DNA from: an uncultured Chloroflexia bacterium
GTDB taxonomy: Bacteria; Chloroflexota; UBA6077; JACCZL01
Length of the DNA: 64,000 nucleotides
Assembly (NCBI GenBank): GCA_963765765.1
Contig: CAVXYC010000010.1
Span: forward strand, 1-64,000
Direction of reading: 5' to 3'
Part shown: piece after piece, positions 31,497 to 48,765 of the stretch
How positions within the stretch are numbered: the stretch's first letter is position 1
Layout: each line of letters begins with the position of its first letter
The notes under the pieces: model-generated
Seen by the model: the letters and a program-made list of their open reading frames with translations, nothing else
The model's database searches: none
Told to the model about the DNA's origin: nothing
Program-made: the position numbers and the translations under genes

Positions 31497-32341
31497 CGAC
31501 AACCAAGCTCAAAGACATGAAGCGCGATGGCGAGCGGATTGCCATGCTGACCGCGTACGACTACCCGACCGCGAGTGTTCTCGACGAGGCAGGAGCCCAT
31601 GTGCTCCTCGTCGGCGATAGTCTCGGGGTCGTTGTGTATGGCTACGAGACGACACTTCAGGTGACCCTGGAAGACATCCTGCGCCACACCGGCGCCGTGG
31701 TGCGCGGAAGCAAGTCAGCTCTAGTCGTGGCCGACATGCCGTTCCTTACATACCAGGTCACGATAGAAGAAGCTGTTCGCAACGCCGGCCGTCTCCTCCA
31801 GGAGGGTGGCGCCCACGCGGTAAAGCTGGAAGGTGGCGTGACGATGGCGCCAACGATTCGGCGACTCGTCGATCTAGGCATACCGGTCATGGCGCATATT
31901 GGGCTCACGCCTCAGTCCGTCAATCAGCTCGGGGGATATCGTGTGCAAGGTCGGACACCCGAGATCGCGGCCAAGCTGCTCATGGATGCGCAAGCTGTCC
32001 AGGAAGCAGGCGCATTTGCCGTGGTGGTAGAGTGCGTGCCGGCGCCACTGTCGGCGCTCATCAGCCGTAAGCTCGATATCCCCACGATCGGAATTGGCGC
32101 CGGGGCCGGCTGTGACGGCCAGGTGCAGGTTATTCATGACATGCTCGGGCTGTTCAATGATTTCATTCCCCGCCACGCTAAGCGATATGCGGAGCTGCGC
32201 GACGTGGTTCGCGACGCGGCGAAGCAGTACATTGCCGACGTTCAGTCCGGCGCATTTCCCACGGACGCTCAAAGCTTCACCATGAACGAATCGATCCTGG
32301 ACGAGCTTCGGTCCGACGAGCAGATCCGCGCGCCAGCCTGA
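31487..32341 (+). CDS. panB: 3-methyl-2-oxobutanoate hydroxymethyltransferase
   Basis: MLTAYD, LVGDSLG, DMPF, VKLEGG, HIGLTPQ, TIGIGAG..CDGQV. Confidence 0.98.
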   Translation: MRLTTTKLKDMKRDGERIAMLTAYDYPTASVLDEAGAHVLLVGDSLGVVVYGYETTLQVTLEDILRHTGAVVRGSKSALVVADMPFLTYQVTIEEAVRNAGRLLQEGGAHAVKLEGGVTMAPTIRRLVDLGIPVMAHIGLTPQSVNQLGGYRVQGRTPEIAAKLLMDAQAVQEAGAFAVVVECVPAPLSALISRKLDIPTIGIGAGAGCDGQVQVIHDMLGLFNDFIPRHAKRYAELRDVVRDAAKQYIADVQSGAFPTDAQSFTMNESILDELRSDEQIRAPA

Positions 32342-32343
32342 TC

Positions 32344-33228
32344 ATGCGCATCGTCACGACGCTATCCGAGGCGCGTCGGTGCCTGGAGGCACTGCCGCGG
32401 CCTCATGGGCTCGTGCCTACGATGGGCTACTTGCATGAGGGACATCTCAGTCTAGTTCGCCGCGCCCGAGCCGAAAACGCGGTCGCAGCGGCAACGATCT
32501 TCGTGAACCCTACCCAGTTTGGCCCGAATGAAGACCTCTCCACATACCCGCGTGATATGCCGCGCGATCTTGCGCTGCTCGAGACTGAGGGTGTGCAAAT
32601 CGTGTTTACCCCCTCGGTCGAGGAGATGTATCCGCCGGGAGGAGAGACAGTAGTCTCTGTTGGAGCTCTCAGCCGCAAGCTCGAGGGAGTGGCGCGTCCA
32701 GGGCATTTCGATGGCGTGGTAACCGTCGTGACAAAGCTCTTTCACGTCATGGCGCCAGATCGTGCCTATTTCGGTCAGAAGGATGCGCAGCAGACAGTTG
32801 TTATCAGGCGCATGGTACGGGACCTCCGGTTTCCGGTTGAGATCGTTGTTTGCCCGACCGTTCGGGAGTCAGACGGCCTGGCATTGAGTAGCCGAAACGC
32901 GTACCTCGACACCCAGGAGCGCGGGGCTGCATTGGTGCTCTCCCACGCGCTCGTGCGGGCTCAAATGCTCCACGCGAAGGGTGAGCACAGCGCCGAGCGC
33001 ATTCGATTGGAGATGCTCTCGATTCTGCGAGACGAGCCGCTTGCAGACGTGGACTATGTGAGCGTGGCCGATCCCGAAACATTGGATGAGCAGCTTTGTT
33101 CCGGAGCCGGCTCGCTGGTCTCGCTCGCAGTGCGGATCGGTCGGACGCGTTTGATCGACAATGTTGTGCTGGGTGTGACTCCCGATCTCATCGATGACGT
33201 CCGCACAATCGCCTACCGCACGCGCTAG
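32344..33228 (+). CDS. panC: Pantoate-beta-alanine ligase
   Basis: VPTMGYLHEGH, FVNPTQF, RPGHFDGV, FGQKDAQQ, LALSSRN, RLIDN. Confidence 0.98.
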   Translation: MRIVTTLSEARRCLEALPRPHGLVPTMGYLHEGHLSLVRRARAENAVAAATIFVNPTQFGPNEDLSTYPRDMPRDLALLETEGVQIVFTPSVEEMYPPGGETVVSVGALSRKLEGVARPGHFDGVVTVVTKLFHVMAPDRAYFGQKDAQQTVVIRRMVRDLRFPVEIVVCPTVRESDGLALSSRNAYLDTQERGAALVLSHALVRAQMLHAKGEHSAERIRLEMLSILRDEPLADVDYVSVADPETLDEQLCSGAGSLVSLAVRIGRTRLIDNVVLGVTPDLIDDVRTIAYRTR

Positions 33229-33317
33229 AATACCCGCAATGCTTCATGGCGCTGACGGGCTGGAATTCGGCTCTCCAGCGCCTTGTACGCGAATGTCGGA
33301 CCGATGGTGGAGGAGTC

Positions 33318-34676
33318 ATGCTGAATCGATCAGACAATGAGCTGATGTGCCGCGTTGGGCCCAAGACACCGATGGGGAATGTGCTCAGGCAATATTGGCA
33401 CCCCATTCTTTTGCAGTCTGAGCTGGCCGAGAACGACGGTGCGCCTTTACGTGTGCGCCTGCTGGGTGAGGATCTCGTGGCGTTCCGGGACACCAACGGT
33501 GATGTTGGCCTAGTTGCCGAGAATTGCCCCCACCGTGGTGCATCGCTGTTTTTTGGGCGCAATGAGGAAGAGGGACTTCGGTGCGTGTACCATGGCTGGA
33601 AGTTCGAGACTTCTGGCGCGTGCGTGGACATGCCCAATGAGCCACCGGAGAGTAACTTCAAGCAGAAGGTAAAGGTCACTGCATACCGCACACGAGAGCG
33701 CGGCGGAGTGATCTGGGCTTATATGGGGACGCGCGAGACGCCTCCGGAGCTGCCGTCGCTGGAGTGGAACCTGGTTCCGGCCGAGCAGGTTTACGTCTCC
33801 AAGCGATACTCGGAATGCAATTGGGTTCAGGGCGTCGAGGGCGGCGTCGACTCCAGTCACTCCGGGTTTTTGCACAGTCCACTGAGCTCGCACCGAGTCA
33901 AGGAAGAGAGCGAGCACGAGAACAACGCGGAGCTACGGACCGACGGCGGATCGCGCGGCATGATCTACAAGGCCAAGGATAAGCATCCGCACTTCGAGGT
34001 CGTGGACACGGAGTACGGGGTCTTGGTTGGTGCTCGTCGCCGCGCCGAAGAAGACTCCTGGTATTGGCGGATCACGCAGTTTCTTATGCCCTACTTCTCA
34101 ATGATTCCTTCGTACGGTGAGAGTCCAAAGATTAGCGGCCACGCCTGGGTGCCGATCGACGACAACACCACGATGGCCTGGACGGCGACCTGGCATCCAA
34201 CGCGCCCCCTCACGGAAAAGGAAGTCGAGCGCATGCACTATGGATGGGGTCTCCATCTTGGTGTGGACACGCTCGACACTCCAATCCCCGGCAAGCCAGG
34301 AAGCGAGTGGCGGCCCAAAGCAAACGCTTCGAACGACTATCTCATCGATTGGGATGCACAGCGTACGAAGGTCTTCTCAGGTCTGCCCGGTACGGCCATG
34401 CAGGATCAAGCCCTTCAGGAGACGATGGGTGCGATTTACGAGCGCTGGCACGAGCATCTCGGGACCAGCGACACGGGGATCATCCAGATGCGTCGACGCT
34501 GGCTGGCGGCAGTTCGCGAGCTCGAGGCGAATGGGACCGTGCCGACCGGTGTAGACGCTCCCGAGTCGTACCTCGTTCGGTCCGCCGGCGTGGTGCTGCC
34601 ACGAAACGTTCAATGGGTGGAAGCATCCCGCGAGTTTGTTACTGCCACGCCGGGCGTGCATCACGCATCGGCCTAG
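33318..34676 (+). CDS. Rieske non-heme iron oxygenase alpha subunit 1 (phthalate 4,5-dioxygenase/LigXa-like)
   Basis: CPHRG...CVYHGW; EGGVDSSHSGFLH; QDQALQE; EHLGTSD. Confidence 0.95.
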   Translation: MLNRSDNELMCRVGPKTPMGNVLRQYWHPILLQSELAENDGAPLRVRLLGEDLVAFRDTNGDVGLVAENCPHRGASLFFGRNEEEGLRCVYHGWKFETSGACVDMPNEPPESNFKQKVKVTAYRTRERGGVIWAYMGTRETPPELPSLEWNLVPAEQVYVSKRYSECNWVQGVEGGVDSSHSGFLHSPLSSHRVKEESEHENNAELRTDGGSRGMIYKAKDKHPHFEVVDTEYGVLVGARRRAEEDSWYWRITQFLMPYFSMIPSYGESPKISGHAWVPIDDNTTMAWTATWHPTRPLTEKEVERMHYGWGLHLGVDTLDTPIPGKPGSEWRPKANASNDYLIDWDAQRTKVFSGLPGTAMQDQALQETMGAIYERWHEHLGTSDTGIIQMRRRWLAAVRELEANGTVPTGVDAPESYLVRSAGVVLPRNVQWVEASREFVTATPGVHHASA

Positions 34677-34800
34677 CAACAACGTCATGGTCCCATTTGT
34701 CCCATCCGTTCGATTTATCTTTGACGTAGAGGGACGGACGAGACAAATGGGACCCATAGAATTCCGCGTTAAGAGCGGGCATGGCGGAGATACATAGAAC

Positions 34801-35124
34801 ATGTTGACGTTGATGGTGAAGCTCTCAGTCAAGCCTGAGAAGGTGGATGAATTCCTGGCTGCGCTCGAGGTGAATGGCCGCTCGGCCGTTCGTGACGAGC
34901 CCGGTTGCTATCGTTTTGACGTGAGCCGCGGAATCGACAATCCGTCGATCATCTACCTCTACGAGGTCTATGCCGACGAGGGAGCCCTCGATGCCCATCG
35001 CGAGGCGCCGCATTTCATCAAGTGGCGCGATACCGTGAAGGACTGGTATTCGGCTGATGCCGAGCGGACGCTCGCGACCACGGTTGTACCGACCGACGCG
35101 GAGTGGAGATCGGGCAAGAGCTAG
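34801..35124 (+). CDS. ABM-family (putative quinol monooxygenase/LsrG-like) protein
   Basis: EPGCYRFDV, LYEVY, AHREAPHF. Confidence 0.9.
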   Translation: MLTLMVKLSVKPEKVDEFLAALEVNGRSAVRDEPGCYRFDVSRGIDNPSIIYLYEVYADEGALDAHREAPHFIKWRDTVKDWYSADAERTLATTVVPTDAEWRSGKS

Positions 35125-35204
35125 CAAGTCTGGGACTGCGGGCAGGACGATCGCGGTCCCAGCACTTATCATCCTTTTAGGATCCCGCGACAGGTGATGC
35201 AGAC

Positions 35205-35753
35205 ATGACCGTGCCCCCAACTGGAGAGATCGCAACCTTAGCTGGTGGTTGCTTCTGGTGCCTCGAAGCCGTCTATGACGAGCTCAAGGGCGTCGTCGAC
35301 GTCACTTCTGGATACGCCGGCGGGCAGGTTGTGAATCCTACGTACCAGCAGGTCTGTGGTGGTGACACAGGGCATGCCGAAGTCGTCCGCATCGCGTTCG
35401 ATCCAGCCAAGATCTCGTTCCGCGAAATCCTGGAGGTCTTTTTCACAATCCACGACCCCACGACGCTGAATCGTCAGGGCGCGGATGTGGGTACGCAGTA
35501 TCGATCAGCGATCTTCTATCACTCCGATGAACAAAAGCGCGTGGCGGAAGAAGTCATCGCGGAGATCGCATCGTCAGGTATCTGGAAAAACCCCATCGTC
35601 ACCGAGGTCACCCCAGTGCCTGAGTTCTATTCCGCGGAGGACTATCACCAGGAGTACTTCGCCCGGAATCCGAACCAGGGATACTGCCAGGTTGTAGTAG
35701 CGCCGAAGGTCGCCAAGTTTCGATCGAAGTTCCTCGCGAAGCTTCGCGGGTAA
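35205..35753 (+). CDS. msrA: Peptide-methionine (S)-S-oxide reductase
   Basis: GGCFWC, TGHAE, HDPTTLNRQG, QYRS, AEDYHQEY. Confidence 0.97.
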   Translation: MTVPPTGEIATLAGGCFWCLEAVYDELKGVVDVTSGYAGGQVVNPTYQQVCGGDTGHAEVVRIAFDPAKISFREILEVFFTIHDPTTLNRQGADVGTQYRSAIFYHSDEQKRVAEEVIAEIASSGIWKNPIVTEVTPVPEFYSAEDYHQEYFARNPNQGYCQVVVAPKVAKFRSKFLAKLRG

Positions 35754-35894
35754 CATCGCCCGAGCGCGCCCTTCGTTCCAGAAAATCCTACCCTCGAGAT
35801 CATGGATCGAGTACACCGGTAGAGCCTGAGCGGTAATTGGTCGATTCAGGCGAGAGTCTGTCGGTACACTCTCGCCAGCTTACGGAGGGTGCGC

Positions 35895-37637
35895 ATGGCT
35901 TCGGCTGCTCCAACTGTCGCCAATCGCGGTTTACTCGAGCGCGGACGAGGGATCTCGATCAGCGGATTGGGACTTGTGTTCGCGCTGCTGCTCGCTCTGG
36001 TGGCGTTTGTGGTCCTCTACCCGATTTTGCTGCTCGTCGTGAATAGCTTCCAGGTCGGTGTCTTCGGTCGAGAGACGACCTGGGGTCTGGACAACTGGCG
36101 CACCGCGCTGAGCGAACCCAAGTTTCGCGAGGCCATTTTTAACACGCTTGGCCTGACCGCCATCCGCCAGTTCCTTGCGTTCGGTTTCGGCGTCTGCCTG
36201 GCCTGGCTCTTTGCTCGGACGAACCTCCCTGGCAAGAGCATCCTCGAGTTTGGATTCTGGGTGGCGTTCTTTTTGCCGACCCTCACGGTCACGCTAGGCT
36301 GGATCCTGGTATTCGATGGCGAGCGTGGATTGGCCAACAGAGCGCTCATGAACTTGCCCTTCGTTCAAGGCCCCGTGTTCGACATCTACTCGTGGTGGGG
36401 AATCATCTTTGTTCACCTCGTCACGGGTACTCTGGCATCAAAAGTCATTCTGCTTACCCCGGCGTTCCGAAATCTCGACTCATCGCTGGAGGAGGCGTCG
36501 ATTGCGTCCGGCGCCAGCACGTTGAGCACACTCTTCCGCATCGTCGTCCCGGTCATGGCTCCTGCGCTGATGATCGTGATGCTGCTCGGAACGATACGAT
36601 CGCTCGAGTCGTTCGAAGTAGAGTTGATTCTTGGAGCTCCGCAGCACATCGACGTCTACAGCACCCTCATCTACCGTCAGGTTCAACAGCAGCCGCCGCT
36701 TTATGGAAACGCCACCGTCCTGAGTCTGGTGGTACTAGCTCTCATTCTGCCCTTCGTGCTTGCTCAGCAATGGATGACCAACAAGCGCAGTCACGCGACG
36801 GTGTCGGGGAAGTACGCGGCACGATTGCAGAACCTTGGCAAATGGCGATGGCCGCTCTTCTATATGGTCCTGACTGTGGTGATCATTGTGGACGTGGTAC
36901 CCATAGTCTTCATCATCATGAGCACATTCATGAAGCTCTTCGGCTTCTTTACGGTGTCAGACCCATGGACGCTGAGACACTGGCAAGAAGCGCTACGCGA
37001 TCCCAATCTACTCTCCGCCTTTAGGAACACCCTGATCCTCGGAATAGGCGCGGCGGCGCTAGCCATGTTCCTTTATATGCTTATTGCCTACATGTCAGTC
37101 CGGACTCGCTTTCGCGGGCGTGGCGCACTCGACTTCCTCACCTGGCTCCCTACAACACTCCCCGGTATCGTGATCAGCCTGGGCTTTCTCTGGCTGTTCC
37201 TCGGAACCCCGGTGTTTCGACCGATGTATGGGACGTTGTGGATCCTTATCATTGCGGTGACGCTGAGCAGCATGACAGTGGGTGTTCAGATCATCAAGTC
37301 TAATATGGTGCAGCTTGGCGCGGAGCTTGAAGAGGCCTCCTGGGCGAGTGGTGGATCGTGGTGGTATACGCTCCGCCGCGTTGTCATTCCACTGGTGGCT
37401 CCCGTGGTGGCGGTTGTAGGCGTACTTACATTTGCAACGGCCGCGCGGGCGACGAGTGTCGTCGCGTTGCTATCGAGTCGCAATATCCAGCCGCTGTCTA
37501 TGTTGCAGCTCGATCACATGTCGGATGGCGCGTTCGAGCGTGCGTCGGTGATCGGCGTGCTGATCCTTTTCCTCACCACTGGCGTAGCGCTGATTGGTCG
37601 ATACATTGGATCGAAGTCAGGGATCACCGCACGCTAA
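35895..37637 (+). CDS. ABC transporter permease, FbpB-type (duplicated domain)
   Basis: Two EAA loops (LEEASIASGA, LEEASWASGG); about 12 hydrophobic segments. Confidence 0.93.
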   Translation: MASAAPTVANRGLLERGRGISISGLGLVFALLLALVAFVVLYPILLLVVNSFQVGVFGRETTWGLDNWRTALSEPKFREAIFNTLGLTAIRQFLAFGFGVCLAWLFARTNLPGKSILEFGFWVAFFLPTLTVTLGWILVFDGERGLANRALMNLPFVQGPVFDIYSWWGIIFVHLVTGTLASKVILLTPAFRNLDSSLEEASIASGASTLSTLFRIVVPVMAPALMIVMLLGTIRSLESFEVELILGAPQHIDVYSTLIYRQVQQQPPLYGNATVLSLVVLALILPFVLAQQWMTNKRSHATVSGKYAARLQNLGKWRWPLFYMVLTVVIIVDVVPIVFIIMSTFMKLFGFFTVSDPWTLRHWQEALRDPNLLSAFRNTLILGIGAAALAMFLYMLIAYMSVRTRFRGRGALDFLTWLPTTLPGIVISLGFLWLFLGTPVFRPMYGTLWILIIAVTLSSMTVGVQIIKSNMVQLGAELEEASWASGGSWWYTLRRVVIPLVAPVVAVVGVLTFATAARATSVVALLSSRNIQPLSMLQLDHMSDGAFERASVIGVLILFLTTGVALIGRYIGSKSGITAR

Positions 37638-37673
37638 GAGCGCACCAATTTTCAAAAGCCAGGAGCACTTGAA

Positions 37674-38465
37674 ATGAGCTCAGGAGTGGACTTCCGGTTA
37701 GATGGCAGAGTTGCCATCATCACGGGCGGTAGCACGGGGATTGGCCTCGGGATTGCTGAAGCGATGGCGCAGGCCGGTGCGAGCGTTGTCATCGCCGCTC
37801 GACGGCCGGAGGTGGTTGACGAGGCTTGTCAAGCGATTGCATCGCAGGGTGGAACTGCCGTTGGTATCCCAACCGATGTCTCGGACTCCGAGCAAGTGCA
37901 CCGTCTCGTCGCGAATACTCGTGAGAAGCTCGGTCGCATCGATATCCTTGTGAACAATGCTGGCGGTACGTTTGGGCCAACGTTCAAGCGGGGCCCGCTG
38001 CTAGAGATGGAAGATGCCGATTTCGAAGAGTGTTGGGCTGTGAACGTCAAGAGCGCGTTTATGTGCTCCAAAGCCGCCGTTCCGCACATGATGGAAGGCG
38101 GTAACGGTTCGATCATCAACATCTCGTCTGTCAGCGGTCGAGAGAATACCGCGCCGATGGTGGGTTTTTCAGCGTATGGGTCGGCCAAATCGGCGCTGAT
38201 CGGCCTGACGCGCGGGATGTCTGTGGAGTGGGCGCCAGCAATTCGAGCGAACGTGATCGCGGCAGGCATGATAGACACGCCGCGAGTGACGGCAAGTCGG
38301 GCCGGCGATGACATGAGCGCGTGGTTGCAGACTATCGCCATGGGTCGGGCCGGACTGCCAGTTGATGTTGCTGGGGCGGCCGTGTTCCTGGCTTCGGATG
38401 CCGCGAGCTGGATGACCGGATCATGTATCGATATTCACGGTGGATTGAAAAGGTCGGTGAGCTAG
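37674..38465 (+). CDS. SDR family oxidoreductase
   Basis: TGGSTGIG, NNAG, YGSAK. Confidence 0.95.
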   Translation: MSSGVDFRLDGRVAIITGGSTGIGLGIAEAMAQAGASVVIAARRPEVVDEACQAIASQGGTAVGIPTDVSDSEQVHRLVANTREKLGRIDILVNNAGGTFGPTFKRGPLLEMEDADFEECWAVNVKSAFMCSKAAVPHMMEGGNGSIINISSVSGRENTAPMVGFSAYGSAKSALIGLTRGMSVEWAPAIRANVIAAGMIDTPRVTASRAGDDMSAWLQTIAMGRAGLPVDVAGAAVFLASDAASWMTGSCIDIHGGLKRSVS

Positions 38466-38529
38466 AGTCAGCAGCTCGGCTCGCCAATGTGCCGATGACT
38501 GAGAAAGCGTAGGGAAAGGAGCATTGAGC

Positions 38530-39752
38530 ATGAATCGACGTGGATTGAATGCAGTGTTCGCATCAATGGCCGCAAGCCTGATGGTGGCCGCGTGCGGCCC
38601 CGCGGCGACGCCAGCGTCTTCGCCGGCAAAATCGGAAGCCGCCAAGACTGAAGCCCCGGCAGCGAAGGCCGAGGCTCCTGCCGCCAAAACAGAGGCCGGC
38701 AAGCCCGCTGCTCAGGCACCGGCGTCAAGTGCAGACTGGCAGACCGAATGGCAGAACGTTGTAGAAGCTGCCAAAAAAGAAAAGCTGGTCATCGTCTCCC
38801 ATCCGGGCAGCGACTACCAGGCGCTCATGGAGAGCTTCAAGAAGGACTTTCCGGGTATCGAAGTCGAGCACTCCGGGCAGCGGCCGAGCGACATTTCGCC
38901 CAAGATCATCACCGAGCAGCAGAACGGCGTGTTTAACTGGGACGTCATGGCAGCGACAACGAGCAACATGAACAACGTGCTGCTGCCGGCAAACGCGTTT
39001 CAGGACATCGAGCCGTTTTTTGTACGCCGTGATGTGATGGACGACAACGTTTGGGGCGGCGGCAAATTCGAGATGTACACCTCGAATGATCAGAAGTCGA
39101 TTCTGGTCCACAACGCTTGGCTAGCAAGCCGCGTCTACGTCAACCGCGAGAAGGTGGGCGCGGACAAGCTCAATTCCATTGATGATCTACTCAAGCCGGA
39201 GTTTCAGGGACAGATTGTGGTGGACGATTGCACCGTTCCGCGCATGGTATGGGCGCCCTGGTGGGCATCTGGCAAACGAAGGGCGAGGATTTCGTACGCA
39301 CGTTACTCTCGCAGCAAAAGCCCGTGTTCCAGGATACCGTCCGTATCACGACGGAGTGGGTCGCGACCTCGCGCTATCCTATCGGCATCGGCGTTGATTC
39401 GCCGGAGCTTCGAAAGCTCCAGTCCAATGGCATAGGTACGCAGGTCGAGGTGCTGAACTTCCAGGGCGGGAACATCTCTACCCAGGGTGCCGCGGTGTTC
39501 AAGAACGCACCTCACCCGAATGCGGCCAAAGTCTTTCTGAACTGGCTGTGGTCCAAAGAAGGACAGACGGCCTTCGTTGACGCCTTCAAAGCCAGTGAGT
39601 CACCCAATAGTCGCCGGCTGGACGTGCCGGTCGTTGCCCCGGACGTCGTTCCAGATTACAAGAACTTCGGCCAGTACGTCTCGTGGTCCATGGACAATGG
39701 TCGACCAATCGTCGACCAGGTCTCCAAGCTTTGCAAGGAGATGCGTGGCTAA
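38530..39752 (+). CDS. ABC substrate-binding lipoprotein (AfuA/FbpA-like fold); frameshift near 39240
   Basis: VAAC lipobox, AK(T/A)EA linker repeats, W..VVEAAKKE, APHPNAAKVFLNWLWSKEGQ. Confidence 0.9.
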
Positions 39753-39783
39753 TGCTCAGGGGTTCTGTGTTGAGGATGATCCT

Positions 39784-41076
39784 ATGTTGACGCGCGCCGA
39801 CAACGAGCTTCTGACTCAGACACACGCGGAAGCTCCGATGGGTGCATTCCTGCGGCGGTACTGGATTCCGGCACTTCTTCCCGAAGAGCTGCCGGAGCCG
39901 GATTGCCCGCCGGTGCGCCTGAAGCTTCTCGGAGAAAACCTCGTTGCGTTTAGAGATACCGCTGGGCGCATAGGCGTCGTCGGCGAGAACTGTCCTCACC
40001 GCGGTGCTTCCATGTTCTTCGGTCGCAACGAAGAGTCGGGCCTCCGCTGCGTCTATCACGGCTGGAAGTTCGATGCCACTGGCACCTGCGTCGATATGCC
40101 CAATGAGCCTCCCGAAAGCAATTTTAAGCACAAGGTGCGCATTACTGCGTATCCCGCGCAGGAGCTTGGCGGCGTGATCTGGATTTACATGGGGCCGCCA
40201 GAACTGCAGCCCGATGTTCCAGCCCTGGAATGGGCTCTGGTTCCAGAATCACATCGATACCACACGAAGCGTATACAGGCGTGCAATTGGGCTCAGGCGC
40301 AGGAGGGTGGAATAGACTCGAGTCATATTTCCTTCCTGCATCGCGATCAGGGGCCTGGTACGGCCAATCTCACACGCCGTCAGGTAGGTGGTACGGCACT
40401 CTCGCTGCGAGATTCAGCTCCACACTTCGAGATCGTCGGCGCACCGTACGGACTGCTGATTGGCGCTCGCCGGAACGCCGATGAGGACCATTACTACTGG
40501 CGTATTACCCAATGGATAGCGCCGTGGTACACGATGATCCCACCCTTTGGAGACAATCCCATTGGTGGGCACGCGTGGGTGCCGATTGACGACGAAACGT
40601 GCCTCACCTGGAGCTTCCAGTGGCATCCGGCGCGTCCGCTGAGCGAGGAAGAATTGAAACCTATGCGGGCGGGGTTGGGCATCCACATGGAGCTGATACC
40701 GGGAACATATGACCCGGTTCGCAATAGGGCGAATGACTACTTGATCGATCGCGATGCACAGAAGAGCGGTGCGTCATTCACTGGGATCCGAGGCATTTCC
40801 GCGCAGGACAACGCTATGCAGGAAAGCATGGGCAAAGTGTTCGACCGCACAAAGGAGCATCTGGGATCATCCGACACCGCGATCATCCAGGTACGGCGGT
40901 TTTTGATCAGCAATGCTCGGAAGGTGAGTGAAGGAGGAGCCCCGCCCGGTCTCAGTGCCGATCAGCAAAGAGTACGATCGGTATCGATAGTTATCCCGAA
41001 GTCAGTAACGGCCTGGCCGGAGGCGGCCAAGGACGCGCTGGTCGCTAGCCCCGATAATTTCTTCGTATCAGCCTAA
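39784..41076 (+). CDS. Rieske oxygenase alpha subunit 2
   Basis: CPHRG...CVYHGW; EGGIDSSHISFLH; QDNAMQE. Confidence 0.95.
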   Translation: MLTRADNELLTQTHAEAPMGAFLRRYWIPALLPEELPEPDCPPVRLKLLGENLVAFRDTAGRIGVVGENCPHRGASMFFGRNEESGLRCVYHGWKFDATGTCVDMPNEPPESNFKHKVRITAYPAQELGGVIWIYMGPPELQPDVPALEWALVPESHRYHTKRIQACNWAQAQEGGIDSSHISFLHRDQGPGTANLTRRQVGGTALSLRDSAPHFEIVGAPYGLLIGARRNADEDHYYWRITQWIAPWYTMIPPFGDNPIGGHAWVPIDDETCLTWSFQWHPARPLSEEELKPMRAGLGIHMELIPGTYDPVRNRANDYLIDRDAQKSGASFTGIRGISAQDNAMQESMGKVFDRTKEHLGSSDTAIIQVRRFLISNARKVSEGGAPPGLSADQQRVRSVSIVIPKSVTAWPEAAKDALVASPDNFFVSA

Positions 41077-41168
41077 TGCGTTACGCTGGACGGGGCAGAA
41101 TTCCCATGGGGTTCGGTCCCGGCGGTATTTCCCGATTTACATGCTGAACTGTCAAAGGAGATAGCTCC

Positions 41169-42314
41169 ATGGCGATTTCGAGCCCCGCCGCATCAGCGGC
41201 GAGCACTGCGCAGAGATCGAGTGACGTGGTCCTCGAGCTTGATACGGTCACCAAGTTTTACGGGACCGTGAAGGCTGTTGATGCTATTAGCATCAACGTC
41301 AACAAGGGCGAAGTGCTTACGCTGCTCGGACCATCGGGCTGCGGAAAAACGACGACGCTCCGAATGGTGATTGGCCTGGAGCGTGTCTCCGGCGGAGAGA
41401 TCCGTTACCGCGATCGCGTCATGGATTCCGGGAATGGTCGATCATATGTGCCCACCCACAAGCGCAACATGGGCATGGTGTTTCAGAGTTACGCCATTTG
41501 GCCACACATGACGGTGTTCGAGAATGTAGCCTATCCCCTTCGGGTACGCCGCACGCCGAACAACGTGGTGTCTGAAAAGGTCGAGCGGGCGCTGGATCAG
41601 GTCGGTCTCGGAGGCCTAGGCGGCCGCGGTGCCACCCAGCTCTCCGGTGGTCAGCAGCAGCGCGTCGCGCTTGCCCGAAGCCTTGTCTTCGAGCCGGAGC
41701 TACTCCTACTCGATGAGCCGTTCAGCAATCTGGACGCCAAGCTACGCGAGCAGATGCGCGGCGAGCTCAAGATCCTCCAGCGACGCCTGGGCATCACGGT
41801 CCTCTTCGTCACTCACGATCAGATTGAGGCGCTGAGTCTTTCCGACCGGATCGCGGTGATGAACCTGGGCAACATTGAACAGCTCGGTCGACCCCTGGAG
41901 CTCTACAACGCGCCCAAAAGCGCCATGGTTCGAGACTTTCTCGGAAGAACGCTCATACTCGATGGTGAGGTGGCGGAGCGTCGCGGAGAGACCGTGGTGG
42001 TGAGACTGAACCAGGGCGGCGTGATCGAATCGAACAATGCGTCTGAGGATCTGGGTGTCGGTACTCCATGTCAGGTGGCTGTGCGCCCGGAGAAGGTCGC
42101 CGTTCGGCCTGACCTGGCCGCTGGCGGCACGAATCGAATCAAAGGCATCCTGGAGGCCCTGCTCTTCATTGGCGATCGTTACGAGGCACGCGTGAGCATG
42201 GGTGGCAGCAACGAAGATGTCACTGTGTACATGGAAGCCGGAGCCAACTGGCAGGAAGGCCAGGAGGTGAGCCTGGAGTTCCCGGCAAACGAGCTCCGTG
42301 TCTGGCCGGTCTAG
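41169..42314 (+). CDS. ABC transporter ATP-binding protein (FbpC/PotA-like, TOBE domain)
   Basis: GPSGCGKT, FQSYA, LSGGQQQR, LLLDEP, VTHD. Confidence 0.96.
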   Translation: MAISSPAASAASTAQRSSDVVLELDTVTKFYGTVKAVDAISINVNKGEVLTLLGPSGCGKTTTLRMVIGLERVSGGEIRYRDRVMDSGNGRSYVPTHKRNMGMVFQSYAIWPHMTVFENVAYPLRVRRTPNNVVSEKVERALDQVGLGGLGGRGATQLSGGQQQRVALARSLVFEPELLLLDEPFSNLDAKLREQMRGELKILQRRLGITVLFVTHDQIEALSLSDRIAVMNLGNIEQLGRPLELYNAPKSAMVRDFLGRTLILDGEVAERRGETVVVRLNQGGVIESNNASEDLGVGTPCQVAVRPEKVAVRPDLAAGGTNRIKGILEALLFIGDRYEARVSMGGSNEDVTVYMEAGANWQEGQEVSLEFPANELRVWPV

Positions 42315-42403
42315 AGACCAGTTGCCCGGATTCCGGCCCTGACCTAAACTACATTTATGCGGGCCCAGAGCCCGCCCTCACCGTTGAATTGGAGGCGGCG
42401 AAC

Positions 42404-42724
42404 ATGAGCATGAGCCCCGAAGAGTACCTGGCGATTCCCTACGTGCTCGTCATGGAGTCCGTCGAGAAAGACGATGGCGACTGGATTCGCCGCGCAGAGT
42501 ATCCGGAGCTTCCGGGCTGCGTCGCGGAGGCGTTCTCGCCGCTGGATGCCATTGACCAGCTGGAGGAGAAGCGGGTGCGCTTCATCATGGAGCGGTTGGA
42601 ACGCGGCGAGCCGATTCCCGTACCGCGCGCACCTCTACGGGCAGGCGTAGAAGGCCCAGATCCCGACAAGCTCGGATTCGCCAAGTGGCTCGTGGATCAA
42701 GACCGCATCTCGGATAAACGCTAA
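42404..42724 (+). CDS. HicB-like fold protein, orphan
   Basis: EYLAIPY...AEYPELPGCVA...A...L...LERGEPIPVP; GGAGG RBS. Confidence 0.8.
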   Translation: MSMSPEEYLAIPYVLVMESVEKDDGDWIRRAEYPELPGCVAEAFSPLDAIDQLEEKRVRFIMERLERGEPIPVPRAPLRAGVEGPDPDKLGFAKWLVDQDRISDKR

Positions 42725-42748
42725 CAGGTGACATCCCGCGCTAGCGTG

Positions 42749-42785
42749 AGCGGACCGTTCTCTCGAGGGAACGGTCCGCTTTTCC
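42749..42785 (+). terminator. Intrinsic terminator-like hairpin
   Basis: AGCGGACCGTTCTCTCGAGGGAACGGTCCGCT followed by TTT. Confidence 0.7.
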
Positions 42786-42810
42786 ATTTGTTGAAAGTGA
42801 GAAATTTGCC

Positions 42811-43623
42811 GTGACGATTGACATGTCAAATATCAGTGAGAAATGGGTGGAGCTCAGCCACGGAAAGACCCGCTATCTGGAGTCGGGCTCGGGCGAGCCA
42901 ACCATCTTTCTGCACGGTGTTGGCTACGTCCAGGCCGCGCACACCTGGCGACCCAATCTTGGTCCCATCGGGCAGAAGACAAGAGCAATCGCCGTTGATT
43001 GCCTTGGGTGGGGGCTCGGCGATCGCCTCGATATGGAGTACTCGTTCGCCTACATCGTGGATTTCGTACGCGAGTTTCAAGATGCACTGGGCATCGAGCG
43101 CTCGAACATCGTGGGCCACTCAATGGGTGGCTGGTTAGCTTCGCTGTTTGCATATGAGAGTCCGAACCGAGTCAACAAGCTGGTGCTGGTTGGAAGTGGG
43201 GGGACACGGACCCGGACGATTCCGTCCATGACCGAGTTTCAACCGCCATCCGAGGAGCAGGTGAGGGATAGCCTCAAGAACCAATTCCATCTCTCCAATG
43301 AATGGGTCGATGCACTCCTTCCCGAGTGCTGGGCCGTGACGGACGTACCGAATGCGCTGGATGTCTACCGAAAGATCCTGAAGCACATGAACAATCAGGC
43401 GACACGCGATAAGTATGGGACCGTTCGGCGACTACCGAAAGTGACGGCGCCCACGCTGGTTGTCTGGGGCGCCAATGACGAGGTCAATGCGCTCGAGATG
43501 GGTCAGCTCACGGCCGAGCTCGTTCCGAATTCGAAGCTGGTTGTCTTGGAGAATACCGGGCACTTTGCGCCAACGCAGCGTATCGACGAGTTCAACAGCG
43601 CGGTACTAAACTTTTTGTCATAA
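42811..43623 (+). CDS. Alpha/beta hydrolase (resembles meta-cleavage-product hydrolases)
   Basis: FLHG, GHSMGG, WGAND, TGHF. Confidence 0.92.
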   Translation: MTIDMSNISEKWVELSHGKTRYLESGSGEPTIFLHGVGYVQAAHTWRPNLGPIGQKTRAIAVDCLGWGLGDRLDMEYSFAYIVDFVREFQDALGIERSNIVGHSMGGWLASLFAYESPNRVNKLVLVGSGGTRTRTIPSMTEFQPPSEEQVRDSLKNQFHLSNEWVDALLPECWAVTDVPNALDVYRKILKHMNNQATRDKYGTVRRLPKVTAPTLVVWGANDEVNALEMGQLTAELVPNSKLVVLENTGHFAPTQRIDEFNSAVLNFLS

Positions 43624-43659
43624 CTTTGCGAGGCTAGGGAAAGAATGGACGGCGCCCGC

Positions 43660-43753
43660 GGTTTGTAGTGCGGAATTTATTCCGCCGTGCACACTTGAAC
43701 GCACCGAGCAGATATCGCAAGAGGACGGCGGAATAAATTCCGCACTGTAAACC
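43660..43753. repeat. GTAG-type REP doublet
   Basis: GTAGTGCGGAATTTATTCCGCCGT ... ACGGCGGAATAAATTCCGCACT. Confidence 0.8.
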
Positions 43754-43789
43754 GGTGGCCATGCTTCCGTCAGCATAAGAGGAGCAACC

Positions 43790-45109
43790 ATGCTCACGCG
43801 TGAAGAGAATGATCTATTAACGCGAATCGGTCCCGGTACCCCGATGGGGGACATGATGAGGCGCTACTGGCTTCCGGCCGCGCTTTCAAGCGAGATCGCT
43901 GAGCCAGACGGAACACCGAAGCGAGTTCGTTTGCTCGGCGAGAACCTGGTTGCGTTTCGAGATTCATCCGGGCCAGCCGGCGTTATGGACGAGCTCTGTC
44001 CGCATCGTGGCGCATCGTTGGTTCTCGCGCGAAACGAGAACAACGCGCTCCAGTGCCTCTATCACGGCTGGAGAATTGCCGCGGACGGTGAAATCCTGGA
44101 GACTCCGTGCGAGCCAGAAGATAGCGACTTCAAAGATCGGATTCGCCATGTAGCATTCCCGGTCCGAGAGTTTGGTGGCATGGTCTGGGTCTACATGGGC
44201 CCTCCCGGGACAGTGCCCGAGGAGCCGCGATTTGCCTGGACGGAGCTGCCTCCAGAAAACGTCTCGCTCATCAAGATGCGTATCGAGTGCAACTGGGCTC
44301 AAGGCCTGGAGGGGGTTATCGATTCCGCTCATTCAAACTTTCTGCATTCGAGTGAGATCGTTCCCTCGGCCGCCGCGTCGTCGCTCGGCGGCGCGTCTAT
44401 CTTTCGCAATTCGGACGAGACGCGGCAGCTCGATCGGCCTTCGAATGATGGACGCCCTCGTATGGAGACGCAGGACACTTCGTACGGCTTTCGCTACGCG
44501 GCGATTCGGAAACCTATGCGGGATGCCGATAAGAACAAGTACATCCGCGTGAGCTTGTTCGCAGCGCCGTTCTACGGTTTCTTCCCGACGCCTGATGGCT
44601 TTGGCGCGATGCAGGCCTTTGTGCCGGTGGATGACGAGACGACTCATTTCTACTTCGCCCAGTATTCGCTTAGCGGTCCGGTAGATAAGGAAAACTATGC
44701 CTACCGATCGGGTGCCAGAATGGGCATTGACCTGGACGAAGACTTCCGCAAGATCCGCACGGTGGAGAACAACTTCCTGCAGGATCGTGAGCTGATGAAG
44801 AGCGGCAAGAGCTTCTCCGGCATTTTTGGCGTGAACGTCCAGGACATGGCCGTTCAGGAGAGCATGGGCAAAATCTACGATCGTACGCGTGAGCACCTTG
44901 GCGTCAGCGATGTCGCGGTGATTCGCTTCCGACGCATCATGCTGGACGCGGCTCGAAAATTTGCCGAGAGTGGCCAGACCCCGCCGTCGCTACAGGGTGG
45001 CGTGCCTTACGGGCAGCTCCGAGCTCAGGAGAAGATCATCCCAATTCAGGACTCCTGGTTGCCGGTCGGCGCGTTCGCCGGCGAGCTGACCGAGGTCGGT
45101 GGTCGCTGA
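43790..45109 (+). CDS. Rieske oxygenase alpha subunit 3
   Basis: CPHRG...CLYHGW; EGVIDSAHSNFLH; QDMAVQE; EHLGVSD. Confidence 0.95.
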   Translation: MLTREENDLLTRIGPGTPMGDMMRRYWLPAALSSEIAEPDGTPKRVRLLGENLVAFRDSSGPAGVMDELCPHRGASLVLARNENNALQCLYHGWRIAADGEILETPCEPEDSDFKDRIRHVAFPVREFGGMVWVYMGPPGTVPEEPRFAWTELPPENVSLIKMRIECNWAQGLEGVIDSAHSNFLHSSEIVPSAAASSLGGASIFRNSDETRQLDRPSNDGRPRMETQDTSYGFRYAAIRKPMRDADKNKYIRVSLFAAPFYGFFPTPDGFGAMQAFVPVDDETTHFYFAQYSLSGPVDKENYAYRSGARMGIDLDEDFRKIRTVENNFLQDRELMKSGKSFSGIFGVNVQDMAVQESMGKIYDRTREHLGVSDVAVIRFRRIMLDAARKFAESGQTPPSLQGGVPYGQLRAQEKIIPIQDSWLPVGAFAGELTEVGGR

Positions 45110-45114
45110 GCGGC

Positions 45115-45360
45115 ATGTCGAAAGCCGAGAGCGCCGCTGTTCCCTCAATCGCAGAACTACTCGACCGCACGCGCGAGCTTATCGTCGATGCGTGGGACCG
45201 AAACGAGCGGCCCGAGTATCTACTGGTGAATCCTTCGGTGTACGAGGCAGTGCTGGCAGCCAAAGCGCGCGAGTACCACTTCGGCCGTCCGATACGGCTA
45301 CTGGGCCTTCTGGTGGTGAGCTCGCCGGATGTGGCGGTCGATTCCGCGCAGGTGGCGTAG
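45115..45360 (+). CDS. Small protein resembling an isolated HK97 capsid A-domain (family 4 encapsulin/DUF1884-like)
   Basis: Starts 5 nt after the Rieske stop; helix, PEYLLVNPSVYEAV, then GRPIRLLGLLVVSSPDV; fold assignment by eye only. Confidence 0.55.
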   Translation: MSKAESAAVPSIAELLDRTRELIVDAWDRNERPEYLLVNPSVYEAVLAAKAREYHFGRPIRLLGLLVVSSPDVAVDSAQVA

Positions 45361-45377
45361 GATCGCCTCGATTTCAA

Positions 45378-45472
45378 CTCCCTAACCGACTCCCTTGCCC
45401 TTTGGGAGAGGGTTGGGGCGAGGGGCCCGAGATGGGGAAATGCATCTACCCTCTCCAAAAGGGCGAGGGAGC
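45378..45472. repeat. REP-like element (GGGAGAGGG/CCCTCTCC type)
   Basis: TCCCTTGCCCTTTGGGAGAGGGT ... ACCCTCTCCAAAAGGGCGAGGGA. Confidence 0.7.
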
Positions 45473-45490
45473 CGGCTAGGAGTTTGCATC

Positions 45491-46252
45491 ATGCGTCTAC
45501 AAGGCAAAGTCATCATCGTCACCGGCGGCGGCAAAGGACTTGGACGGGTCTATTCAAAGGGCCTTGTGGCAGAGGGCGCAACAGTTGTCATTGCTGAGAT
45601 CGATGCGAAGGCCTCAGCCCGCACGGCCGACGAGATCAAGTCAGATGGCGGCAACGTGCGTTCAATCCCAACGGACGTCTCGAGCCTCGAGAGTGTTCGG
45701 GCACTGGTCGATCAAACCGTGAGCGAATTCGACCGCATCGATGTCCTGGTGAACAACGCTGCGCTCTTTGCGGACCTTCCAAGCCGTCCGTGGCAGGAGA
45801 TCACACCCGATGAATGGGACCAGGTGATGTCGGTCAATATGCGCGGCGTCTTCCTGTGCTGCCAGGCGGTCATCCCCGTGATGGCGCGCAACGGCGGCGG
45901 CAGCATTGTAAACGTGTCCTCCAGCACCATCATCAATGGCGGTCGCGGCTCCATCCACTACACCGCCTCAAAAGCGGGCGTGATGGGCATCACCCGATCG
46001 TTTGCCAGGCAAGTCGGCGACCTCGGCGTGCGGGTCAATACCCTCGCGCCCGGCGGCACCGCCAGCGACACCCTCATGGCAGCGCATGACAACGATCCCT
46101 CATTTTTCGATCGAAACGTGCCCTTGCGGAGCATCAAGCGCTGGGAGCAGCCTGAAGATTTGTTGGGCACGATCATCTTCCTCGCCTCAGACGACAGTGC
46201 CTTCCTGACAGGCCAGATGATCGTGGTGGACGGCGGCAAGGACTTCCACTAA
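45491..46252 (+). CDS. SDR family oxidoreductase
   Basis: TGGGKGLG, NNAA, YTASK, RVNTLAPG, VVDGG. Confidence 0.95.
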   Translation: MRLQGKVIIVTGGGKGLGRVYSKGLVAEGATVVIAEIDAKASARTADEIKSDGGNVRSIPTDVSSLESVRALVDQTVSEFDRIDVLVNNAALFADLPSRPWQEITPDEWDQVMSVNMRGVFLCCQAVIPVMARNGGGSIVNVSSSTIINGGRGSIHYTASKAGVMGITRSFARQVGDLGVRVNTLAPGGTASDTLMAAHDNDPSFFDRNVPLRSIKRWEQPEDLLGTIIFLASDDSAFLTGQMIVVDGGKDFH

Positions 46253-46709
46253 GTCCCCAAGAGGCGCCCGCTTCGCCGTTGACGGGATAGTAGATAGAGC
46301 CATCCGAAATGTCACCCATCCCCTTCGGGCCTTCTACGCGCACCTTGGAAAGCGGGAGCTGCTGCGACTTTCTTCCGGCTGGGGCTACCAGATATTTAAA
46401 TGCATCGGAATTCGCCGCTGAACCGAGACGCCTTGCAGGTCGGCGAAGTGCGCCCGGGAATGGTTCGGATGCGGGCCGAGGGAAATAATCCGTCGGGAAC
46501 TCCCGCCGCTATTGCAAAGCTCCAAGCGACCCAGCGAAAGCGTGCTGTGGCTCGGACGGAATGGGAGCTATCTCATCCAGAGGAGCAGCACTCGGCAGAA
46601 GAGTTCGGGCGAGAGCCAATCACCAACTACCCCTCTGCGGTCGGTTCAGCGGTAAAGCCACCCTTGACGCCGCGTAGTCCTCAAGACAAGTTACAAGCAG
46701 CTTGACACC

Positions 46710-46968
46710 CTAGCTACTGCGGACACGGTCCGGACAGGTGTCCGCAACGGACTTGTGGTTCGCCAGCTTGGAACGAAGCCAGCGGAACATCCTGGTGGAA
46801 TCATCGTCCGTGTGTCCCGCAGCCCGATACTCCGCTCGGAGTCTGTCTAAGATGGGAGCCGCGGCCAATCGTAGTTCTCCGACAGCCTCGTCCGACGGAC
46901 GACGCTCAACGGTGCCAAGCGCCACCCGGAATTGCTCGATCTGTTCGTATCTGACCTGGTTGTTCATC
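46710..46968 (-). CDS. Hypothetical protein
   Basis: Helical, protein-like ORF (..ILDRLRAEYRAAGHTDDDSTRMFRWLRS); no family recognised. Confidence 0.4.
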
Positions 46969-47428
46969 ATAAACCTGCTCAGAGTCACCATCGAACAGCG
47001 CGGGCCGGCCGGCGCTGTTCGATGGTGAGCGTGGATCAATGTCGTGGTGACGAGCCGGTCGCCCTGCTACGACCACGAGAGTGGCTACCTCTTCGTCTCT
47101 TGGGCGGATCTACTCGCCGGTAGAAGTCGTTCGGTCGACTTGTCGTGCCATTATACATAGGTTCCCCGTGTAGATATACATGCTCGTGAGTGCACCGCCT
47201 TCGTTGCATGACTACTGCGGCACACCGGCGAAGCGGCTGACTCCGCGGCATGAGCGCGTGCCGATTGCGGGAGCGATCTGAGCGATAGCAGCTCGATAGC
47301 GAGCCACCGGGGCTCGACTCTTTCAATGCAGCCAGCGAGCAGGACCAGGGGACGGTGGCTCCCTTTGCGATCCGAAGCGGCGGAGAGCGCATCCGCCTGG
47401 ATAACCGACTGAGACTGGACCGGGCGTG

Positions 47429-48103
47429 TTAGTCGAACAGTCCCAATCGCGCCGCCCGAGCCACCGCTTCCAGGCGGGAATGCGCGTCGAGTTTCGCCAG
47501 CACCGCCGCGATGTGTGTCTGAATGGTGGTTCGACCCAGCACCAGCCGGTCGGCGATCCTCTGGTTATCACATCCTTCCGCCACGAGACGGAGGACCTCG
47601 ATCTCGCGGGCAGTCAGACGTTCCGCGAGCTCTTTGTCCGCATCCCGCCGCCGCCGATCACGAAGGGCCGCGGTGACGCGCGTCATGACCGCGGGAGGCA
47701 TGAGTACTTCCCCTCGTGCCGCCTGGCGCACCGCTTCCACCACCGTATGCAACCCGGATTGCTTGAGCAGCACGCCGCTCGCCCCGGCTTCGACCGCATC
47801 CAGGAGGACCTGGTCCGAATCGTCTCGGGTCAGCATCACCACCCGGATGTCCGGAAATTCTGTCGTCACGGCAAACGCCACCGCGACACCCGTCATATCT
47901 GGAAGGTGGTGCTCCATGAGAATGAGGTCCGGGCGCATCGAACCGACGACTGCGAGAGCGTCGGCGCCGGTCAGGGCGATACCCCCGAGGTCGATGTCAG
48001 AGTCGGGCCCCCACATCGTCGCGAGGAGGTCCGCCAGAACGACATCGTCGTCCACGATCATGACGCACGTGCGCTGATGACTGGTCAAATTTGGCTCTTT
48101 CAT
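47429..48103 (-). CDS. NarL/LuxR-family response regulator (atypical receiver)
   Basis: IVDDD, PDLILME, VMLT, LLK, LTAREIEVL, NQRIA, SRLEAV. Confidence 0.93.
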   Translation of the reverse strand: MKEPNLTSHQRTCVMIVDDDVVLADLLATMWGPDSDIDLGGIALTGADALAVVGSMRPDLILMEHHLPDMTGVAVAFAVTTEFPDIRVVMLTRDDSDQVLLDAVEAGASGVLLKQSGLHTVVEAVRQAARGEVLMPPAVMTRVTAALRDRRRRDADKELAERLTAREIEVLRLVAEGCDNQRIADRLVLGRTTIQTHIAAVLAKLDAHSRLEAVARAARLGLFD

Positions 48104-48765
48104 TGGGGAACGAGCTGATGGGGATCAACGGAAGCGGTCGGTGGATGGGGCACCGTGTTCGAGCTGGGTCTCGGCCCGGAGGCGACCACCATGAAGCGCG
48201 GCGACCTGGCGGACACCGGTAGGAGTAGCCCAATTGCCATCGGAGATCATTCGGAACTGGGGGAGTCGCTGCGTCCGGCTCAGCGCTCGGCGGGCGTTGA
48301 CCACGCCTGAGCAGCCAATTGCGCCGCCAGAAGGGGTCTGCCACCAATGGACTCGATGTGGCTTGGGATCTATCTGCGAGAGAAATGCGGCGGCATTCTA
48401 CAGAAAGATTCACTCCTAACAACGACCCATTCTTAGATACTACACTCCGAGAGCCGTCTTGGGAACGTGTATATGGACATAACCCCGGACGTTCTAGGGT
48501 CTGATCGGTGTTCCAAGTTGCACCGGTCGCTGTCTAAGCCGGAGGCTCTCTCCGCGGAGCGTCACGCTGAAACGGCTACCCGGGTCCTCACCATCACTCG
48601 CCGCGCTGAGGTACCGCGGCTCGTCTCGACCACCGCCCAGCCCTCGCTCGCGGGCGAGCTCAAGCGAGGCCCGCTTCCGCAGCGTGCGGATCGGGCAGCA
48701 GGCGGCCTTGACCGCTTTCGGAGCGTGGCGCGGGACGGTTCAAGCGAAGGAGCGAGTGCTAGCGC

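Follow-up and report, generated by a model that had tools for sequence, protein, structure and literature searches.

The question raised by this locus is whether a long run of co-oriented genes encodes a single machine. The DNA analyzed is a 64,000-nt stretch from an uncultured Chloroflexia bacterium (contig CAVXYC010000010.1, positions 1 to 64,000; termed here the window), and the cluster under study (33318-46252) was read from an open reading frame (ORF) listing and from Pfam and NCBIfam domain scans. The names of the homologues likewise indicate Chloroflexota. An earlier note on the sequence had listed 13 genes in this cluster, among them three Rieske oxygenase genes and two small genes with folds likened to HicB and to the axial (A) domain of viral capsid proteins, and had proposed that the small proteins serve a single oxygenase system. 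All 13 genes are present on the + strand in the order given, and the amidohydrolase, flavoprotein, acyl-CoA dehydrogenase and CoA ligase genes placed downstream are likewise found by Pfam (Table 1). The cluster is interpreted here, with middling confidence, as a catabolic neighbourhood and not one machine, in which the functional unit is a block of three genes that encode (i) a phthalate-dioxygenase-type Rieske oxygenase (Rieske-3), (ii) an 81-aa A-domain remnant and (iii) a short-chain dehydrogenase/reductase (SDR-2), and in which the 81-aa protein is most likely a structural partner of a neighbouring enzyme.

The 81-aa ORF is a real and conserved gene that is under purifying selection. Its GC content by codon position (0.73/0.43/0.72) is of the coding type, and the ratio of nonsynonymous to synonymous substitution (dN/dS) between the window and the related locus L001, described below, is 0.16, with dS near saturation. 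A word-indexed search finds 19 homologues among 23 candidates, all full-length, stand-alone proteins of 70-112 aa, and the alignment of 20 sequences has 28 invariant columns, including RLLGLLVVSS. With an exhaustive profile search the family grows to 100 representative clusters (E<=0.001, 12 of them <=1e-10), of which 97 are 52-126 aa, while the other three are long, repetitive and look spurious. The protein reaches no Pfam or NCBIfam cut-off. A 126-aa ORF (45099-45479) was considered for the A-domain-like gene and rejected, as it is off-frame, Arg/Gly-rich, lies across a repetitive extragenic palindrome (REP)-like repeat and is without homologues; the repeat, which separates the 81-aa gene from SDR-2, creates this false ORF.

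Descent of the 81-aa protein from the HK97 A-domain, or failing that a close likeness in structure, is probable. The AlphaFold (AF2) model (predicted local distance difference test, pLDDT, 87.3) is ordered as helix, strand, helix and strands. Among the 42 PDB rows listed by Foldseek, 36 are HK97-fold capsids or encapsulin shells, five are unrelated and one is 2pk8, which gives the best two-sided template modelling (TM) score (0.60/0.53; root-mean-square deviation of 2.6 Å over 62 columns). The A-domain-like fold that had been guessed is supported by the model and by Foldseek matches that are consistent but weaker than E 0.001. For profile comparison by hhalign, the family profile (103 sequences) was set against a capsid profile of HK97 gp5 and ten HK97-type capsid proteins from a phage collection (11 in all). 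The two align over 71 columns (Prob 67%, E 5.1e-5, score 35.3), with residues 11-81 of the small protein placed on gp5 250-327, which we take to be within the HK97 A-domain, and with N-P, K50/K289 and G64/G310 matching up. None of 100 column shuffles reaches 35.3 (shuffles 10.5 +/- 1.9, maximum 15.7), the reversed profile scores 9.6 and the controls against unrelated profiles give E 0.31 and 0.13.

In the comparison with HK97-type major capsid proteins (Phage_capsid PF05065, clan CL0373), the family profile is thereby matched to gp5 250-327 over all of its folded part, the conserved motifs 'NP..w..i.l.K' and 'wG.PVV' included. By contrast, the 81-aa protein is without the N-arm, E-loop and P-domain of the capsid proteins, has no phage genes nearby and is about one fifth of their length; thus, it cannot build a shell as capsid proteins do. 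Sub-threshold matches of family members include, in Pfam, Phage_capsid_4, Phage_capsid, Major_capside and ENCP4, four families of the HK97 clan (4/103 members, among 13 weakly matched families) and, in NCBIfam, encap_f4c (3/103) and encap_f4a (1/103), among 17 weakly matched families of which only encap_f4c is matched more than once. One of the 103 members matches PHROGs (E 0.008). Searches of plasmids by tblastn with the window protein, P0199 and P0167 gave no match. Two observations from HMMER searches of PDB sequences stand apart from this comparison. The only PDB sequence match of the close-family profile is 1ZTD (E 0.24, not significant; profile 17-73 on chain 71-128), an uncharacterized 133-aa protein of Pyrococcus furiosus, which is also the source of 2PK8. 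Apart from 1ZTD, the searches with the broad-family, close-family and P0239 queries gave only designed pentatricopeptide repeat (PPR) proteins, matched through a short LDEA..G..PD motif and judged spurious.

The association of the 81-aa gene with Rieske-3 is read from a second genome. A single genome scan with the close 20-sequence alignment gave one locus, L001, on a 6.1-kb contig (6108) of another Chloroflexota metagenome-assembled genome (MAG). The Rieske-3 ortholog, the small protein and SDR-2 are kept there in one block, at 83%, 75% and 82% identity, and the distance from the Rieske-3 stop to the small-gene start is 5 nt in both the window and L001. The spacer between the small gene and SDR-2 is 130 nt with the REP-like repeat in the window versus 27 nt in L001. 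Outside the block both flanks differ: the gene upstream in L001 is unrelated to the hydrolase of the window, which is without an L001 counterpart, and the genes downstream encode a dienelactone hydrolase and a molybdopterin enzyme. Of what the earlier note had claimed, the link of the A-domain-like gene to a Rieske gene therefore holds, as a three-gene block with the same 5-nt spacing, while the single system of 13 or more genes is not supported, since only Rieske-3, the 81-aa gene and SDR-2 are retained. P0017 (small protein) and P0246 (Rieske-3, 82%) come from the same source and have the same longest contig (3813), and would represent a second small-protein/Rieske-3 pair.

The three Rieske proteins are, judged by their sequences, paralogous, alpha-only enzymes of the phthalate-dioxygenase/LigXa type. 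The CxH..CxxH Rieske ligands and the HxxxxH iron motif are intact in all three, together with a LigXa_C-type catalytic domain, and the pairwise identities are 49% (Rieske-1/Rieske-2), 39% (Rieske-1/Rieske-3) and 41% (Rieske-2/Rieske-3). Rieske-3 matches the PDB entries 7fjl/7v25/7v28 (PDO_KF1; E 1.5e-114, residues 1-405) and 7fhr (RO_CH34; E 9.1e-83). In the available part of the source, PDO_KF1 is an alpha3alpha3 hexamer and RO_CH34 a homotrimer, and both are two-component systems that work with a single reductase, without a beta subunit or ferredoxin (PMC8649396). For this family the assumption that beta subunits or ferredoxins would be expected where the small genes sit does not hold, as the nearest solved relatives of Rieske-3 use neither (PMC8649396, as far as that text is available). 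The phthalate dioxygenase two-component system (PDO_KF1/PDR; RO_CH34) resembles Rieske-3 in being alpha-only with Rieske and LigXa_C-type catalytic domains and in having a dehydrogenase gene after the oxygenase; it differs from the window, which has no PDR-type reductase gene nearby and has an extra 81-aa gene after the oxygenase. Homologues of Rieske-3 number more than 7000, some bearing 'phthalate 4,5-dioxygenase' as an automatic source label. Six of the clusters listed are at >=75% identity, beyond which there is a drop from 75% to 64%; thus, the small gene seems to accompany only a narrow Rieske-3 clade.

The nearest described counterparts of the 81-aa protein are the Family 4 A-domain encapsulins (PF08967 ENCP4/DUF1884; encap_f4a/b/c). 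They too are small, stand-alone proteins (~80-100 aa), made up of the HK97 A-domain, to which the 81-aa protein probably corresponds, and their genes likewise follow that of an enzyme directly within a conserved operon; they include 2PK8, the best two-sided structural match. As given in the available portions of the sources, 2PK8 (P. furiosus PF0899) is the sole solved member and the function of Family 4 is untested, with a structural or stabilizing role proposed (PMC8346489, PMC11664910); in the operons described the A-domain gene comes after that of the enzyme, and a complex of glyceraldehyde-3-phosphate dehydrogenase (GAPDH) with an A-domain protein in P. furiosus is cited (PMC8346489). The available text of a 2024 review lists the family only from Euryarchaeota and Bacteroidota (PMC11664910). 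The 81-aa protein differs in being shorter, in its origin (Chloroflexota, versus hyperthermophilic Euryarchaeota or Rhodothermus-type Bacteroidota) and in its neighbour enzyme (a Rieske oxygenase, with an SDR flanking, versus hydrogenase, OsmC, GAPDH or DeoC). The Family 4 models matched by any of the 103 family members are ENCP4 (one member, E 0.065), encap_f4c (best E 0.0022) and encap_f4a (E 0.0024; 18.3 bits versus a 90-bit cut-off). By the current models of Family 4, the 81-aa protein falls outside the family. A literature search outside the subscription journals found no relevant paper that joins encapsulin with Rieske by title, and only the 2021 survey on 'A-domain encapsulin' or 'DUF1884'.

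The proposed scheme for the neighbourhood is as follows. The ABC (ATP-binding cassette) importer would take in the substrate, probably an aromatic aryl carboxylate (phthalate-like), and the three alpha-only oxygenases would work with reductases encoded elsewhere. From what is known of the enzyme families, Rieske-3 is expected to dihydroxylate the aryl carboxylate, SDR-2 to re-aromatize the dihydrodiol and the Amidohydro_2 enzyme perhaps to decarboxylate the product, such that the SDRs, the hydrolase and the Amidohydro_2 enzyme would together process the products. The 81-aa protein, as a putative stand-alone remnant of the A-domain of an HK97-type capsid protein, would be co-produced with Rieske-3, with translational coupling as the probable mechanism, and would bind Rieske-3. 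A complex prediction for the two proteins scores 0.05 versus a mark of 0.32 and counts neither for nor against binding. By analogy to Family 4, its most likely role would be that of a small structural partner that stabilizes or organizes the oxygenase oligomer. A wider proposal is tentative: the 81-aa protein would be the first member seen of a widespread bacterial family of stand-alone HK97 A-domain proteins that lacks annotation and numbers 100 or more clusters (50% identity), and in this Chloroflexota lineage it would have been recruited as a dedicated small subunit or chaperone of a phthalate-dioxygenase-type Rieske oxygenase.

Several results weigh against this interpretation. In the structural comparison, no Foldseek match of the 81-aa protein is at E<=0.001 (best 0.036), the HHalign probability is 67% and not above 90%, HMMER profile searches of PDB sequences find no capsid, and searches with the window protein bring up none of the Family 4 models at E<=10 (Pfam) or E<=1 (NCBIfam). 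Linkage is read directly in L001 only, with 2/19 homologue clusters assessed. No reductase, flavin-reductase or ferredoxin domain is found among the ORFs of about 60 aa or more scanned across the window, and the oxygenase system is therefore incomplete here. The substrate is predicted at the level of a class. Frameshifts interrupt several genes of the neighbourhood, so that parts of it could be without function, or else the assembly could be prone to errors. Last, the best BFVD matches of the 81-aa protein are small uncharacterized phage proteins and major capsid proteins, all weak, and Atlas places it near small uncharacterized phage proteins, with one nearest cluster 49% viral.

This proximity to phage proteins makes a role unrelated to the oxygenase possible, and the alternative that survives best is built on it: the 81-aa protein would be phage-derived, merely co-transcribed with Rieske-3 and active elsewhere, for instance in a phage-related or regulatory role, its position being a lineage-specific accident. 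The 100 clusters of the family far outnumber the close Rieske-3 clade, so most members probably have other neighbours. What renders this alternative rather unlikely is that both neighbours and the 5-nt coupling persist across a divergence to ~75-83% protein identity, with the flanks replaced on either side; in addition, the window is free of phage genes, and tblastn with three family members (the window protein, P0155 and P0204) against 50,697 phage records gave no match.

A second alternative holds that the partner of the 81-aa protein is the downstream SDR-2 and not Rieske-3, which would parallel the Family 4B pairing with GAPDH, a Rossmann-fold enzyme, for which the P. furiosus complex noted above is a precedent in the available text of PMC8346489. 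SDR-2 is as conserved a neighbour as Rieske-3. The arrangement of the genes speaks for the oxygenase, in that the Family 4 operons described in that text have the enzyme gene first and the A-domain gene after it, and in that the window has a 130-nt, REP-bearing spacer on the SDR-2 side versus 5 nt on the Rieske-3 side. A partnership with SDR-2 is thus considered unlikely.

The proposal that the whole co-oriented run is one oxygenase system, with both small proteins taking the place of beta subunits or ferredoxins and acting in scaffolding or assembly, is very improbable. The genes are indeed co-oriented and tightly packed, both small proteins belong to conserved families without curated annotation, and no ferredoxin or reductase gene is seen among the scanned ORFs. 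However, the nearest solved relatives of Rieske-3 need neither subunit (PMC8649396, in its available part), and L001 keeps three genes of the run only. Co-orientation itself means little, as a pantothenate/CoA operon on the + strand (29837-33228; coaX, DUF2520 reductase-like, panB and panC) leads into Rieske-1, with 18 nt from the end of panC to the long Rieske-1 ORF; the same-strand run thus extends out of an operon of other function and does not alone define a system.

The HicB-like gene bears on the same proposal. That its 106-aa product has a HicB fold, as the earlier note supposed, is upheld: the AlphaFold (AF2) model (pLDDT 88.6) has three strands, a long helix, a Pro-rich linker and a C-terminal helix (residues 87-98), the ten best Foldseek matches are without exception HicB or TTHA0281 (E 0.01-0.06, none <=0.001; prob 0.99-1.0) and its Atlas neighbours bear HicB_lk_antitox or UPF0150. 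The protein reaches no Pfam or NCBIfam cut-off (HicB_lk_antitox, E 0.097, 13.3 bits versus a 27-bit cut-off), and its family profile finds nothing significant among PDB sequences (HMMER). HicB antitoxins have a C-terminal DNA-binding domain of the ribbon-helix-helix (RHH) or helix-turn-helix (HTH) type. By contrast, no DNA-binding C-terminal domain is detected in the 106-aa protein by Pfam scan or in the model, where only the Pro-rich linker and one helix follow. A HicA toxin gene does not adjoin either, as the flanks are the ABC ATPase and hydrolase genes and the gaps (89 and 86 nt) are too short. Thus, the N-terminal fold is held in common with HicB antitoxins and stand-alone UPF0150 proteins such as TTHA0281 (2DSY), while the toxin partner and the DNA-binding domain are not. 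In the family alignment, the Pro-rich linker (PVPRPPL) is invariant and a conserved C-terminal 'LGFARWLV' helix replaces the DNA-binding domain; linker and helix look like a docking peptide for some partner.

The supposed link of this gene to the oxygenases fares less well. The HicB-like gene has its own Shine-Dalgarno sequence, and after it comes the strongest terminator-like hairpin of the region, with the longest stem of 14 terminator-like sites in 33000-49500 (the total site count is not above that of shuffles). A profile search finds no copy of the family in L001. In size the family far exceeds the Rieske-3 clade, as 333 candidates yield 329 homologue clusters (the best 120 at 53-91% identity), versus the six Rieske-3 clusters listed at >=75%, and several homologues are from Chloroflexota or Dehalococcoidia MAGs, some of the family being source-labelled 'HicB family nuclease'. 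As a proxy for co-location, longest-contig sizes were compared, and no size is shared between the best 120 HicB-like clusters and the 120 Rieske-3 clusters listed. What argues against a link is indirect, and no observation favours one; the gene looks like an orphan of the UPF0150/HicB-N-domain kind, unrelated to the oxygenases, that closes the upstream transcription unit. More broadly, the rest of the cluster looks like an ordinary catabolic neighbourhood in which the HicB-fold gene is a bystander.

Some observations relate the two small families to each other. P0015 (81-aa family) and P0044 (HicB-like) are from the same source and each has a longest contig of 574 bases; if these are one contig, the two small genes may be directly adjacent there, and the match may equally be chance. 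Another HicB-like/81-aa longest-contig match, of 981 bases, involves different sources and is thus chance. No second copy of either small family occurs within the window.

The last alternative, that the small ORF is a decaying prophage capsid fragment or a chance ORF, is close to refuted, as its shortness, its lack of a curated family match and the many frameshifted genes of the window are outweighed by full-length stand-alone homologues in 19 clusters, by the dN/dS, the coding-type GC profile and the confident AF2 model, and by the finding of neither room for nor trace of the rest of a capsid gene.

Table 1. Features of the window (E-values are from Pfam unless stated otherwise).
Feature	Coordinates	Strand	Remarks
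Rieske-1, alpha-only	33318-34676	+	ORF open from 33246; likely start 33318 by alignment to Rieske-3; Rieske 1.4e-18, LigXa_C 1.8e-36
ABM-family small monooxygenase-like protein	34801-35124	+	ABM 2e-20
MsrA, peptide methionine sulfoxide reductase	35205-35753	+	PMSR 5.2e-70; TIGR00401 219.9 bits vs cut-off 108.1
Fused double ABC permease	35889-37637	+	BPD_transp_1 in two stretches; best NCBIfam PhnU2, below cut-off
SDR-1 short-chain dehydrogenase	37674-38465	+	adh_short_C2 4.7e-62
Solute-binding protein gene, split	38524-39752	+	two frames: 38524-39435 (weak phnS2 match only) and 39228-39752 (SBP_bac_11 C-terminal part, 7.1e-7)
Rieske-2	39784-41076	+	ORF open from 39577; likely start ATG 39784 after GAGGA; LigXa_C 1e-44, Rieske 9.1e-18
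ABC transporter ATPase with TOBE domain	41169-42314	+	ABC_tran 1.1e-33, TOBE_2 1e-9
Orphan HicB-N-domain-fold protein, 106 aa	42404-42724	+	GGAGG 8 nt before ATG
Terminator-like hairpin with T-rich tail	42748-42781	+	just after HicB-like stop; 15 pairs, 9 G-C
Alpha/beta-fold hydrolase, C-C hydrolase or esterase type	42811-43623	+	Abhydrolase_1 3.8e-23; best NCBIfam HsaD and BphD, both under cut-off
Rieske-3, phthalate-dioxygenase-type	43790-45109	+	LigXa_C 2.9e-80
81-aa HK97 A-domain-like protein	45115-45360	+	starts 5 nt after Rieske-3 stop
Intergenic REP-like repeat	45361-45490		inserted between 81-aa gene and SDR-2
SDR-2, probable dihydrodiol-type dehydrogenase	45491-46252	+	adh_short_C2 2.8e-57
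Amidohydro_2 enzyme	49273-50211	+	Pfam
FAD_binding_2 flavoprotein, split	50461-51901	+	over two frames; Pfam
Acyl-CoA dehydrogenase	52076-53230	+	Pfam
ADP-forming CoA ligase	53142-55280	+	Pfam
Aldo/keto reductase, split	2480-3450		
Animal-haem-peroxidase homologue, split	11541-13403	-	in two pieces; E 1.5e-84
S9 peptidase, split	21640-22711		
Gamma-glutamyltranspeptidase, split	22753-24701		
GDE_N glycosidase, split	26670-27204		

The window has other features outside the block. At least seven of its genes are split over two frames or pieces, which suggests either an indel-prone assembly or widespread pseudogenes. One of these encodes a homologue of the animal haem peroxidase family, a family that is uncommon in bacteria. 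Near the start of the window, at 3527-3961, 3989-4936 and 7565-8206, lie the genes of two GYD-domain proteins and one ORF whose product has an 'Unstab_antitox' addiction-module domain. Between the two catabolic runs lies an islet (46400-48859) with four ORFs (101-130 aa) that match nothing in Pfam or NCBIfam, inside which a LuxR-type response regulator is encoded on the minus strand (47429-48103). The REP-like repeat next to the 81-aa gene is G-rich and palindromic, with the core GGGAGAGGGTTGGGG.GAGGG in three copies in the window: the core at 45404-45425 recurs at 622-643 and 665-686 (minus strand), with 0 expected by chance. A similar translation, 'GRGGWGVRG', closes P0130, a HicB-like homologue that is not from this window.

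If the 81-aa protein is indeed an A-domain remnant that partners Rieske-3, the Family 4 encapsulin idea would extend beyond hyperthermophilic archaea, and the protein would be an accessory component of a kind not described for Rieske oxygenases. A distinct bacterial A-domain family, set firmly between an oxygenase and a dehydrogenase gene in a mesophile-type genome, would provide more tractable systems for the study of mini A-domain function. Rieske oxygenases are valued in bioremediation and biocatalysis and are often unstable; thus, a natural small partner that stabilizes them, if borne out, would be of practical interest.

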